This document shows positions 38,688-42,865 of a DNA stretch of 64,000 nt, one piece after another. Made by a program: the position numbers and the translations under genes. The stretch spans positions 1,054,001-1,118,000 of the forward strand of contig CP145410.1 in NCBI GenBank assembly GCA_036867785.1, given 5' to 3'. The DNA is from Plasmodiophora brassicae. Its lineage: Eukaryota. Under the pieces are notes generated by a model. That model saw only the letters and a list, made by a program, of their open reading frames with translations, had not been told where the DNA came from and made no database searches. Within the stretch, counting starts at the first letter, position 1. Every line of letters begins with the position of its first letter.

Positions 38688-39120
38688 ATGCAGCGTCACT
38701 GGGCACGTCTAATGGCGACAGTCGCGGACGGGCCAGTTGCAACCGCCATACGCGACAAGCTCTCGAAAGCGTTCTCGCCCGTGCATCTTCTCGTTATCAA
38801 CGAGAGTTCGTCACATAACGTTCCCCGTGGTTCAGAGGTAATTGGCCGGAGCGCGGAGCTCGCGTCGACAAGCTCGTCATTTATTAGTATGTTTCTGTCA
38901 GACGCACTTCAAAGTGTTTGTCGTGACGCCGGCATTCGAAGGCATCTCCTCCATTGATCGCCACCGGTCTGTTCAGAAGGTGCTTGCAGAGGAACTCAAG
39001 GGCGGCGTTCACGCGCTATCAATTATTGCCAAGACGCCAGCGCAATGGTCATCAGACGATAATGTACCTGCGTCCCCGGCTTGCATGGGTGGCGATGGAA
39101 CTTTCAGCCGGAAACATTAA
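38688..39120 (+). CDS. BOLA1: BolA1-like protein (mitochondrial)
   Basis: INESSSHNVPRGSETHFKV...FEG...RHR...GVHALSI...PACMGG. Confidence 0.92.
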
Positions 39121-39255
39121 ACAGGTCCCATGATATTCCACGGCACATGTGCTATATGGAGTGCGCCCTAGTATTTTCACCTGACGGAGTCCGCGGAGTC
39201 CGAGGAAAGTCCGGCGACGGAGGTGAGAGAATCGGTTTCTGATTGCACCAGCGTC

Positions 39256-39846
39256 ATGGCAAGCGAGAAGGCCGTCAAGGACAAGTCGTCCAATCCGATG
39301 ATGGACATTCGGATTGAGAAGCTTGTCCTGAACATCTCTATCGGCGGTGGTGACCGTTTGACGCGTGCTGCGACGGTGTTGAAGGAGCTCACTGACCAGG
39401 AGCCCGTCTTCTCCAAGGGTTAGCCAGTGACTTCTATTATACGTGTTTTGTAGACGTCCTCTAATTCGCTCGCAGCTCGTTACACTGTCCGATCGTTCTC
39501 CATTCGTCGTAATGAGAAGATCGCGACGCACGTCACTGTTCGCGGTGAGAAGGCTGAGAAGCTCGTCAATCTCGGCCTTCGCGTTAAGGACTACGAGATT
39601 AAGGCGAAGAACTTCTCCGACACGGGCAACTTCGGTTTCGGTATCGAGGAGCACATCGATCTCGGTGTTAAGTACGACCCGGCGATCGGTATTTACGGCA
39701 TGGACTTCTACGTCGTCCTGTCGCGACCCGGTGGCCGGGTCGCCGTTCGCAAGCACAAGCGTGGCCGCGTCGGCAAGAAGCACCGCGTCACCAAGGCTGA
39801 GGCGATGAAATGGGTGCAGGCCAAGTTCCAGACCGCCATTCTGTAA
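39256..39846 (+). CDS. RPL11: 60S ribosomal protein L11 (uL5), one intron
   Basis: [39 protein letters not shown] and [14 protein letters not shown]. Confidence 0.98.
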
Positions 39847-39937
39847 ACTTGAATGTGCACTTTCGTACCAAAAGTCACTACACCCAATACATCCTACTCT
39901 AATTTCATACGTCGTCCCGCTTTAATGTTCTTTATAG

Positions 39938-40704
39938 CTAATGACGAGCGATAACTGTCGTCGCTCCACCCGATTCAATCGCCTCGATCTCGTCATCAGT
40001 AATCATCTTTCGCGAGTACCGTGCTGGAGTTGGTTCATACGGGGACGTCGCGGGCGGCGTACTATCGACATTACGGTCGCGGCTGGCCCGACTCTTCTGA
40101 CTGCCAACCTTAGGGGATACGTCTTCATGCTGCCTATCGGGACCGTATCGGAACTGGATCAGCGGTCGGTACGCAGACGCCTGTGACGATAATGCTGTCG
40201 ATGGCGATTTCGTTGATGTTGGAGGCGCTGGTTGCGACCTCGTCGGAGGCGTCTTCTTAGTATCTGGTTCCGGAGCAGAGGGACGCGGCCCCGTAGCATC
40301 GTCGATGGACAATATATCGTCTCCAACCTTAATTACCTGTTTGCCGACAAGTCAGGAACACATTGGGGCTGATCCGCTGTCCATAAAATGGAGCAACCTG
40401 GCCGGGCTTTGCGAAGACCTCCTTGACAACTCCAGAGGACGACGACCGAATATCAACACTGACCTGAAGGTTACCGCGTCAACAAGCGCAACGAGTACTG
40501 CCGCGTACGCCAACCTTGTCCGTCTCCGCGATAGCGACAACGTCATCAACGGCGACCTGATCGCCCACGTTTTTCACGATTTCAACGATCTCACCCTCGG
40601 TGATCGAGTCGCCCAGCGAAGGTAGCACAACCTTCGACGCCATCCATCGTGACTGGACGCGACCCCCCACCCACATCCGCATCGTCGTTGCCATGCATCT
40701 CATC
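39938..40704 (-). CDS. Mitochondrial lipoyl domain plus MRPS36/KGD4-like adaptor fusion (two introns)
   Basis: Presequence; lipoyl domain PSLGDSITEG...ETDKVSVDIRS; Pro/Thr linker; RPLIQFRYG and PARYSRKMITDDEIEAIESGGA; no acyltransferase core. Confidence 0.8.
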
Positions 40705-41183
40705 ATCACTACCGGAGAGAGACGCCTCAATCCTGCTTGCGCCAAATTGAAATACTCCGTCCCTGTCCAACTGTCAAAACGAGTAAAACAGGCGGCGATG
40801 TGAGGTTTATTGACTGTCGGTCTATCGCAGGGATAACACTGGGCGACTATGCTGTCAAACAAGACATCGGTTTCGAATCTACCTAGCAGCATTGGCGTAC
40901 TATGCTTTGGCGGGACAGGTAGAGGTGGTGCCGTGGTTGTTAGGTAAACAAATTGACAAGAGTTCTGACCCACATGGCATGGCGCCTTGGCAACTTAGCG
41001 TTTGTGGGCCAGAAACTACGTAGTCGTCGACTTGCAGTCGCGTCAAGCGAATCTCAAAACGTAGGCCCCATCGTAAACTCAAGAACGTCGGTGGGGGGTT
41101 TATTGCGAGAACCGCATTGGTTCGGTGCGTGGTCAGACAACGCAATCCGACGCGACATGTGAAGACGCGCGAACGTCGGCGCA

Positions 41184-42865
41184 TTACGCCTTGGCAGGAG
41201 GGCGCGATGAGGCCGTCGGCACAGCTTTGCGCGAGTCACTTCTCTGCAGAGGGAACTGCGGCCGGACTGACTCGATCTTTGGAAACGCCATCGTAAGGTC
41301 GAAGAACGCGTCTGGCGCTGTGGAAAACACATCGTCATGCACATGACAAGCGCCTACGGTGAATGTTTACCAAGGCAGTCGGGCCTGTTGAACAGACGAT
41401 TGAAGTTTTCACGATCGATTGTTAGGAACAGCGATCGGCAGACTGCCGTTACAGCCGCTTTCCGTTTCGTGTCGCCCTTGACCATAAGGCCAACTTCGCC
41501 GAAGTAACTGCCCTTCTCGCGTTTCGTGGCGACACCTTTACTGGAGGTGATGGACACAGCACTGCCGGCGAGTCAATGCGGGCCATCAGGTAGACAATCC
41601 AGAAGTTCGGTTCCCTACCCGTCAGCAATCATAAAGAAACGATCGCTTTCGTCGCCTTCCTTGAAGATGCAATCACCAGCCTGGAAGACTTCAACCTTGG
41701 AAACCTTCGATACTTCGTCGAGTATTTCGTCGGACAACGCGTCGAAGAACGACTTGGAGTACTTGCGGAATTGGCGGGCGATCGTGTCCTTCGTTTTAGA
41801 TGCTACGTACTTGTGTACGACGCTGTCAACTTGCATGAAGCGGTCAAAGTCTGTGGCAAACAGTTCTAGCAACGAGCCACGTCAGTAGAGCAACTTGCGC
41901 ACACGTGGCAGGAGCGTCCCATAGAGAATGCAGGCTTTCGTCGATACGACAGTCGACGTTCTTGGGATTTGCATCATCATAGCGATCTCACCGAAACCTG
42001 TACGTGTTTAGCGCAACGATGAGCGCAGAGGCCCGACCACATTTCCATACACTGGCCTGGCTTGATTGTGCTTAGAACGAGGTTACCTATGGCGTCATCA
42101 GAAGGGTGCCTATGGCAAATATTGGTGAAGCGCTTACCAGAGCGCGCCTCGAGCTCTCCGCGTTCGACGATATAGAGCGATTTCCCCGTGTCGCCCTCTT
42201 TGACAGCTGTTTCGCCAGCGCGTACGCCACGTATGTGGACCATGTCAGCGAACATCTCGAGGTTGTGCTTTGTGACGCCCTTGAACATGTCCATGGACTT
42301 AAGGACGTCGTACGCCCTGGTCAATCGAAGCGCCTCCATCACGGCCCCCAAGTCGATCGCGCCATGTTCTTCGGTCTGCATTGCGGCCATGGCACGACGG
42401 CCCAGCTGCAATACTTCAACGTCAGCGCACGCCTTAAGCGTGTACTGGCGCGTTTCGCTGGAGCTCTTCCCATGGACTACGTCCGCCCCGAATATGTCGC
42501 CTGGAGCTAGCGTGCACAAGATCGATGTCAACCCGTTATCGTCGGCTGCAGTGACCTTGATTGCTTTTCCTTTGCATATCACGCCCCAGTAGTCGGCTCT
42601 CTGTCATCGACCATCAGATGTAGCACAGAACAAGCATTTACCGATCGGTTACGTCTCCGGCGCCATGGATAGTTGTGCCTGTGGCATGGAAGGACGTTGA
42701 CATCTTCGCCGCGAGCTTGGATAACATGTTGTCGTCGAAGAAGGCGCCCAGTGGTGTTATGCGTAGTATGCTGGTATACTTGCTGTCCCTGGTGGCTTGG
42801 TCGACCCTTACAGGCACCTTACCGTCCGCACCCGCCGTCGTCCCAGCAGTACCTGCGCTGGCCAT
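41184..42865 (-). CDS. Protein with three cyclic-nucleotide-binding domains and no kinase domain
   Basis: PGDIFGAD (degenerate), FGEIAMMMQIPRTST and YFGEVGL...KRKAAVTA; spliced stop at 41184. Confidence 0.8.

Follow-up and report, generated by a model that had tools for sequence, protein, structure and literature searches.

Gene structure and transcription at the locus

The window analyzed here, a stretch of 64,000 nucleotides of the Plasmodiophora brassicae genome (assembly GCA_036867785.1, contig CP145410.1, positions 1,054,001 to 1,118,000 of the forward strand), includes a gene that encodes a lipoyl domain joined to a region homologous to Kgd4/MRPS36, a 2-oxoglutarate dehydrogenase complex (OGDHc) subunit. 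The accessible part of PMC4214781 describes Kgd4/MRPS36 as a small adaptor of fungi and animals that has no lipoyl arm, and that of PMC9974300 describes MRPS36 as eukaryote-specific. The protein encoded at this locus is a conserved, previously unremarked lipoyl-armed variant of this adaptor. The gene has the following features (positions are those of the window):

39938..40706, minus strand: lipoyl-Kgd4 fusion gene, whole coding region (218 codons plus stop, three exons, two introns)
40515..40706, minus strand: coding exon 1 (64 amino acids, ending ...AIAETDK; basic N-terminus and first half of the lipoyl domain)
40464..40514, minus strand: intron 1 (51 nucleotides, GT..AG; skipped by the contigs of all four runs)
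40398..40463, minus strand: coding exon 2 (22 amino acids, VSVDIRSSSSGVVKEVFAKPGQ; middle of the lipoyl domain)
40337..40397, minus strand: intron 2 (61 nucleotides, GT..AG; skipped by the contigs of all four runs)
39938..40336, minus strand: coding exon 3 (132 amino acids plus the stop codon at 39940-39938; end of the lipoyl domain, linker and Kgd4 region)
40181..40238, minus strand: alternative 'intron' of 58 nucleotides, used only by the public model P0004 (SPQ94247.1, 125 amino acids)
40707..40900, minus strand: 5' leader, present in the contigs of two of the four runs, which extend past 40900

The spliced reading of the gene is identical to a public P. brassicae protein of 218 amino acids, P0012 (CEO94914.1, PBRA_003727), which is recorded as 'hypothetical protein' or 'Lipoyl-binding domain-containing protein'. 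The evidence for splicing came from the Logan contigs of four runs, belonging to four studies and guessed to be RNA, over positions 39800-40900. In the contigs of the four runs, exactly 61 and 51 nucleotides are missing between the predicted splice sites (which read CT..AC on the plus strand), and exon 3 was unbroken and showed no differences in the spliced contigs (those of runs X1 and X13 from 39916-39919, of X2 from 39800 and of X7 from 40005). Since the contigs of all four runs join all exons and cross the linker and the Kgd4 region without a break, the two halves of the protein, lipoyl and Kgd4, sit on one spliced transcript and are not two genes. An initial annotation, made from the letters of the window, had placed both domains on one transcript while allowing for two separate genes, and the contigs, which cross the linker and the Kgd4 part, settled this point in favor of the former. 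The same annotation had delimited the gene as 39938..40704; the end at 39938 was correct, and at the other end a small correction moves the first ATG to 40706. K64, the lipoyl lysine, is specified by the final codon of exon 1 (AAG at 40517-40515).

The public model P0004, whose record is labelled 'mitochondrion', differs in that its 58-nucleotide splice lies in the linker and causes a frameshift, so that the protein stops at RLRTDR without reaching the Kgd4 part. This splice joint was absent from the contigs of the four runs, which may miss rare isoforms. At the other end of the gene there is an in-frame ATG at 40892 and no stop codon between it and 40706, so the N-terminus could be 62 residues longer than in both public models. 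The 5' leader also holds an out-of-frame upstream open reading frame (ORF) of six codons that starts at 40867.

Three other genes were identified nearby. The gene for ribosomal protein uL5/RPL11 (39223-39846, plus strand; Ribosomal_L5 and Ribosomal_L5_C matches) is convergent with the fusion gene, the stop codons of both are 91 nucleotides apart, and one contig, from run X2, covers the two. A gene for a BolA-like protein (66.3 bits) is found at 38842-39117 on the plus strand. The gene for a protein with cyclic-nucleotide-binding domains, located at 41357-42603 on the minus strand, is in several ORF pieces and is therefore probably intron-containing.

Domain organization of the encoded protein

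The protein can be divided into the following regions, listed with the positions of their coding sequences:

40304..40634, minus strand: lipoyl domain, residues 25-97 (split by both introns; Pfam match and AlphaFold2 model)
40175..40303, minus strand: linker rich in Pro, Thr, Ser and Ala, residues 98-140 (low AlphaFold2 confidence)
40142..40168, minus strand: N-terminal Kgd4 motif RPLIQFRYG, residues 143-151 (alignments)
39962..40027, minus strand: C-terminal Kgd4 motif PARYSRKMITDDEIEAIESGGA, residues 190-211 (alignments and AlphaFold2 model)

The Biotin_lipoyl profile (PF00364) matched residues 25-97 of P0012 with 60.7 bits, above the Pfam cutoff, and the profile continues from exon to exon: exon 1 covers its positions 2-40, exon 2 covers 41-62, and the start of exon 3 covers what remains. 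The ETDKV motif is present, the exon border falling after the lysine (ETDK/V). AlphaFold2, run with 103 relatives, predicted a beta-barrel with strands over residues 23-98 and a predicted local distance difference test score (pLDDT) of 92-97. The best NCBIfam match of the domain was sucB, the E2 of OGDHc (E2o), with 71.7 bits versus 64.9 bits for the E2 of pyruvate dehydrogenase (PDH), and the best single-domain match in the PDB was the E2o chain 9njt_A, with 62.4 bits, while the top chain of the pyruvate dehydrogenase E2 (E2p) scored 44.5 bits per domain. On these comparisons the lipoyl domain is likely of the E2o type; we say likely and not certain because the margin between sucB and the PDH E2 profile is small. 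In a tree that was built from lipoyl domains, the row P0007_LD2of2 was a false motif match inside a linker.

Neither the catalytic domain 2-oxoacid_dh (PF00198) nor the peripheral subunit-binding domain (E3_binding or PSBD, PF02817) was matched on P0012 at E<=0.01. Residues 1-24 include four Arg and neither Asp nor Glu, a composition that, taken alone, is consistent with a mitochondrial presequence. The linker was predicted with a pLDDT of 58-66 (block means over residues 101-140).

The remainder of the protein is related to Kgd4. The Kgd4-YMR31 profile (PF10937) matched residues 120-211 of P0012 with 30.0 bits, and the translation of exon 3 alone with 31.9 bits (E 4.5e-7), the Pfam cutoff being 22. 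RPLIQFRYG aligns with the fungal TPLIRFLGKR, a homologous motif situated in the half that binds E3 in yeast, and the AlphaFold2 block that contains it has a pLDDT of 74. The C-terminal motif has its homologue in the core-binding portion of yeast Kgd4, which attaches to E1-E2; residues 191-210 have a pLDDT of about 93, helices are predicted at 200-208 and 211-216, and P0012 ends seven residues past the Kgd4 motif. The accessible part of PMC4214781 reports pull-downs in which the N-terminal half of yeast Kgd4 (residues 1-68) captured E3 (Lpd1) and the C-terminal half captured the Kgd1-Kgd2 core. P0012 thus has the profile match, the N-terminal motif and the C-terminal motif of a Kgd4 protein and is not small, stand-alone and free of other domains. 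Because a lipoyl domain precedes the Kgd4 region on the same transcript, it is not an ordinary member of the family.

Most of this organization had been read correctly in the initial annotation. A lipoyl domain with an intact ETDKV lysine, the lack of an acyltransferase domain, and the two Kgd4 motifs in the described order after a Pro/Thr linker were all recovered, and the proposed kinship of the C-terminus with MRPS36 was borne out by the Pfam match and by the family comparison described below. Two of its labels need a more careful wording. 'E2o-type' holds insofar as sucB is the best match, the margin being modest, and 'presequence' holds insofar as residues 1-24 are basic, which is a judgment from composition.

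The fusion family and the stand-alone forms

An exhaustive phmmer search with the translation of exon 3 yielded eight proteins at E<=0.001. Among them were P0007 of Spongospora subterranea, four proteins of the same layout (one of them, P0009, truncated at the N-terminus) and one stand-alone MRPS36 from a tardigrade. No second P. brassicae protein turned up in this search, which is weak evidence on paralogues, and a word-based search with exon 3 returned only the truncated model P0004. The top phmmer match of exon 3, P0005 (433 amino acids), was taken as spurious; it consists of eight near-identical repeats, each with GKPLLKFQQQ, and lacks lipoyl and Kgd4 Pfam matches, so that its match to exon 3 probably arises from repeats or composition.

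A profile of five fusion proteins was then compared to 8000 scored candidates, of which 2429 matched at E<=0.001, and the best 120 were analyzed. These included 103 short lipoyl proteins without a catalytic domain and 17 proteins with one. In the 103-member set, in which the truncated P0004 was swapped for P0012, PF00364 matched all members and PF10937 matched 49 (E<=0.01). In 86 of the 103, a deliberately loose scan for the Kgd4 motifs located both of them downstream of the lipoyl lysine; nine had only the C-terminal motif, seven only the N-terminal motif and one neither, several of these being truncated entries. D63 and K64 were invariant (103/103), and P144, I146, F148, G151, E202, G209 and G210 were conserved in at least 90% of the sequences. 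Two proteins, P0014 and P0016, have two lipoyl domains ahead of the Kgd4 part.

The named members belong to Rhizaria (Plasmodiophora, Spongospora and Leptophrys), diatoms (Fragilariopsis, Seminavis, Nitzschia, Cyclotella, Cylindrotheca, Astrosyne and Stauroneis), brown algae (Pylaiella and Scytosiphon), other stramenopiles (Tribonema, Chrysoparadoxa, Triparma, Mallomonas, Ochromonas, Nannochloropsis and, as a partial sequence, Heterosigma), oomycetes (Lagenidium, two Pythium species and three Phytophthora species) and one haptophyte (Prymnesium). Nannochloropsis salina was added by cluster look-up, and a further member is a 'Durinskia' transcript. The maximum likelihood tree of 26 named members recovered Rhizaria (support values 99/94), oomycetes (100/100), a brown and yellow-green algal group (100/99) and diatoms plus Triparma (100/100), which is the pattern expected if the sequences were inherited vertically within these groups. 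The protein labelled 'Durinskia' (P0058, EukProt/MMETSP0117) was placed inside the chrysophyte pair of Mallomonas and Ochromonas (100/99) and not with the diatoms. Such a position is unexpected in a dinoflagellate whose endosymbiont is a diatom, and contaminating or ingested cells may be its source. In a protein atlas the best feature cluster scored 0.97 (283 amino acids, commonest phylum Chlorophyta), which we consider a lead that the family may reach green algae; the Kgd4 part alone led to Kgd4/MRPS36 clusters at 0.76-0.77, also at the level of a lead. The phylogenetic distribution that the initial annotation had wished to see thus turned out to be that of a large conserved family in Rhizaria, stramenopiles and one haptophyte.

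These data bear on the notion that the gene is an artefact or is decaying, that is, that two genes were merged or that a truncated E2o pseudogene acquired a chance likeness to Kgd4. The public model P0004 does stop before the Kgd4 part, and the Kgd4 region has little length and some low-complexity sequence. The notion is nonetheless scarcely credible in view of the spliced contigs, which carry the whole frame in the four runs, of the Pfam and hhalign statistics, which are far past chance, and of the recurrence of the architecture in proteins from transcriptomes (MMETSP, EukProt) as well as in gene models, across at least 26 named organisms whose tree follows taxonomy.

The relationship with stand-alone Kgd4 was analyzed using a profile of the Kgd4 parts only, which was compared to proteins of 34-247 amino acids and produced 92 matches at E<=0.001. 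The named stand-alone PF10937 proteins among them came from 23 fungi and one beetle; together with the tardigrade protein, all named stand-alone forms are from opisthokonts. The named stramenopile matches comprised ten fused proteins and another two whose names were cut, besides five short entries. Of these five, P0133, P0175 and P0186 begin within the lipoyl domain, and P0138 and P0139 look like truncated models because both begin at an internal Met just after it. All named stramenopile, rhizarian and haptophyte forms are therefore fused or are models truncated inside or just after the lipoyl domain, within the reach of these searches, to which plants, excavates, amoebozoans and alveolates do not belong. 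When the 103 fusion proteins were aligned by hhalign with 25 stand-alone fungal and animal Kgd4 proteins, the probability was 99.1% (E 2e-18) over 66 columns that cover both motifs. In the fungal proteins ..R-T-P-L-I-R-F-L-G-K-R.. comes straight after about 10-15 residues, and the C-terminus is ..E-L-P-A-R-F-R-R...S-x-A-E-M-E-A-I-E-S-G-G-A-S; both sequences are near-identical in the stramenopile fusions. By these sequence comparisons the C-terminal half of the fusion is homologous to Kgd4, and the Kgd4 module occurs well outside opisthokonts.

Modeling of the interaction with E2o

Ten of the 17 full-length E2 relatives were tested, and the top family was the E2o model in all ten, above its cutoff in nine. 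Four E2o proteins, P0020, P0023 (from Mallomonas), P0025 and P0076, have two lipoyl domains plus the catalytic domain, and E3_binding/PSBD was not matched in any of the four at E<=0.01. In the accessible part of PMC9974300, eukaryotic E2o is said to lack a PSBD and MRPS36 is proposed as its replacement, whereas the pyruvate dehydrogenase complex (PDC) uses the E3-binding protein (E3BP). The fusion P0069 and the full E2o P0023 are both found in one Mallomonas transcriptome, and this co-occurrence indicates that the fusion is an addition to E2o and not a replacement of its arm.

The interaction of this pair was modeled with residues 185-237 of P0069 and three copies of the catalytic domain of P0023. 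The complex scored 0.68 and the best of three controls 0.01. Of 78 solved complexes, 51 attain the docking mark used, as do 2 of 108 mismatched pairs, a calibration that does not extend to peptides or disordered chains. The agreement of contacts between runs was at least 66%, and the pLDDT of the partner was at least 52. The confident contacts were in residues 209-230 of P0069, which include the ..YGRP..EIDAIESGGA.. motif, and touched two adjacent E2o subunits. A PDB profile search with stand-alone Kgd4 gave nothing under E 0.06 and found no solved Kgd4 chain, so the result is unlikely to be the recall of a solved complex. The model supports binding of the C-terminal motif of P0069 to the E2o core, in line with the complex formation that the initial annotation had suggested modeling, here with E2o only.

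Database names and the parent complex

The initial annotation had predicted that automated pipelines would take such a protein for a partial E2, and this is what the databases contain. In UniRef, P0012 and P0004 carry the name 'Lipoamide acyltransferase component of branched-chain alpha-keto acid dehydrogenase', and other members of the family are labelled '2-oxoglutarate dehydrogenase E2 component' or 'single hybrid motif-containing protein'. The misnaming of the fusion proteins is systematic, the label being taken over from the lipoyl domain. Among P0127 (Nitzschia inconspicua), P0209 and others, such labels include 'dihydrolipoyl dehydrogenase', 'Dihydrolipoyllysine-residue succinyltransferase component...' and 'biotin carboxyl carrier protein'. 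Hundreds of entries named 'E2 component', 'BCKDH lipoamide acyltransferase' (BCKDH, branched-chain alpha-keto acid dehydrogenase) or 'single hybrid motif protein' are probably this adaptor.

Taken at face value, the UniRef name would assign the fusion to the branched-chain complex, and an assignment to the 2-oxoadipate or pyruvate dehydrogenase complex may be considered as well, since the total PDB scores of E2p chains equal those of E2o chains and the NCBIfam sucB and PDH E2 scores are only about 7 bits apart. We regard membership in any of these complexes as improbable. The database names were assigned automatically on the basis of the lipoyl domain and nothing else. The Kgd4 half is homologous to a subunit that was shown to act in OGDHc. 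Furthermore, the best single-domain PDB match is the E2o chain 9njt_A (62.4 versus 44.5 bits), the full-length E2 relatives that were tested (10 of 17) are all E2o, and the C-terminal motif was modeled onto the E2o core with controls of 0.01 or below.

Proposed function

Taking these observations together, we propose, with a probability of about 0.7, that the fusion recruits E3 as an E3BP-like, lipoylated subunit of mitochondrial 2-oxoglutarate dehydrogenase. The C-terminal motif (PARY..EIEAIESGGA) would dock on the E2o core or on the E1o-E2o core, and the RPLIQFRYG motif, about 40 residues upstream, would hold an E3 dimer. Carried by a linker of about 45 residues, the lipoyl domain at the N-terminus would be an extra swinging arm located beside the tethered E3. 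The arm could be succinylated by E1o or trade reducing equivalents with the lipoyl domains of E2o, and would be re-oxidised by E3, as occurs with the lipoyl domain of E3BP (protein X) in eukaryotic pyruvate dehydrogenase.

The architecture and the Kgd4 homology would be the same if the protein were a Kgd4-type OGDHc adaptor whose lipoyl domain is not a working carrier and serves as an avidity anchor on the lipoyl sites of E1o or E3, or as a redox or regulatory sensor. The E2o of related organisms already has two lipoyl domains, so that extra carrier capacity may not be limiting, and surplus lipoyl domains are discussed as a structural 'anchor' in fungal OGDHc in the accessible part of PMC10203282. 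On the other hand, the lipoyl lysine and its Asp neighbor are invariant in the 103 sequences, as selection for lipoylation predicts, while an anchor needs less strictness. A role as anchor or sensor only thus appears unlikely, if clearly less so than membership in another complex. In PDC, E3BP carries a catalytically competent lipoyl domain.

Several points weigh against an E3BP-like lipoylated subunit. A P0004-type mRNA lacking the Kgd4 part may exist as a minor isoform, and the true start codon, 40706 or 40892, is uncertain, as contigs do not mark transcript starts. The E2o-type call for the lipoyl domain turns on a margin of 7 bits between profiles, and a tree of 135 lipoyl domains (75 columns) was so poorly resolved that it speaks neither for nor against a single clade or an E2o origin of the fusion domains. 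The docking pair came from Mallomonas and not from P. brassicae, and the docking job differed from those of the calibration in its three copies, its short and mostly disordered partner and the absence of alignments. In addition, the accessible part of PMC4214781 reports that yeast Kgd4 bound the Kgd1-Kgd2 core and not Kgd2 alone, and the docking on E2o alone may consequently be incomplete. The E1o, E2o and E3 partners were assumed for P. brassicae itself, and lipoylation, mitochondrial import, association with E3 and with the core, and any catalytic role of the arm are all processes that we infer.

Evolutionary origin

The evolutionary direction between fused and unfused Kgd4 is a matter of interpretation, since a fused form in Rhizaria, stramenopiles and a haptophyte and an unfused form in opisthokonts fit a single fusion or a single loss alike. 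According to the initial annotation, the fusion may be an intermediate that came from a truncated E2 duplicate. Consistent with this idea, the order of arm, E3-binding element and core-binding element mirrors that of bacterial E2o and of E3BP, the arm is E2o-like, and two-arm fusions exist beside two-arm E2o proteins. The alignment of the Kgd4 part with E2o by hhalign had a probability of 0.2%, with no sequence trace of an E2o origin.

We also entertain, tentatively and as a minority possibility, a broader scenario, in which the fusion is the ancestral eukaryotic E3-recruiting subunit of OGDHc, derived from an E2o- or E3BP-like duplicate, the arm-less Kgd4 of fungi and animals is a reduced form, and the retained arm is catalytically active. 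If this is true, the E3-binding and core-binding functions shrank to two linear motifs while the lipoyl arm stayed, and in Rhizaria, stramenopiles and haptophytes the arm feeds electrons to an E3 held by the same polypeptide.

Significance

No description of a lipoyl-Kgd4/MRPS36 fusion was found in the literature searched, which covered few subscription journals and to which the list of 304 MRPS36 homologues of PMC9974300 did not belong. A literature search for PF10937, Kgd4-YMR31 or IPR020373 and for the accession numbers of the gene likewise found nothing. What is new is the recognition and not the sequence, because the proteins are public and some have both Pfam matches in precomputed tables.

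Since Kgd4 is the tail of a lipoyl protein in three large eukaryotic lineages, their OGDHc would have an E3BP-like fourth subunit, and would include an additional class of lipoylated mitochondrial protein. The carriers comprise major primary producers (diatoms and brown algae) and crop pathogens (Plasmodiophora and Phytophthora), and the fusion would be a concrete, animal-unlike feature of their tricarboxylic acid cycle. The origin of Kgd4 also becomes a testable question, namely, whether the fused or the stand-alone form is ancestral.

Comparison with known systems

Three known proteins are relevant for comparison. The first is E2o (SucB/DLST, TIGR01347), to whose lipoyl domains that of the fusion is nearest. 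Bacterial E2o has the order lipoyl domain, E3-binding element and core, as given in the accessible part of PMC9974300. Unlike E2o, the fusion reached only 71.7 bits with the sucB profile, versus a cutoff of 378.65, and only over profile positions 3-126; as it lacks a catalytic domain, it does not qualify as an E2o.

The second is E3BP (protein X), which the fusion resembles in being non-catalytic and in having an N-terminal lipoyl domain, a flexible linker, and E3-binding and core-docking elements, a likeness that exists on paper. In contrast to E3BP, neither a PSBD (PF02817) nor a catalytic-like inner domain (PF00198) was matched in the fusion at E<=0.01, and for this reason it is not an E3BP. 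Its putative E3- and core-binding elements are instead short linear motifs of the Kgd4 type, and its lipoyl domain is closest to that of E2o.

The third is Kgd4 itself (Ymr31 or MRPS36, PF10937), the 'E4' or 'E3BPo' subunit of fungal and animal OGDHc, which is homologous to the C-terminal 80-90 residues of the fusion. Kgd4 is a protein of about 85-165 amino acids in which the E3-binding motif comes right after a short presequence, whereas the fusion adds a lipoyl domain and a linker of about 45 residues. Both share the order of the motifs and a similar spacing, R-x-P-x-I-x-F-(R)-[YL]-G-K-R followed by P-A-R-[YF]-x-R...S-x-x-E-[IM]-E-A-I-E-S-G-G-A, and on the strength of this resemblance the same role would be expected for both, that of bridging E3 to the E1o-E2o core.

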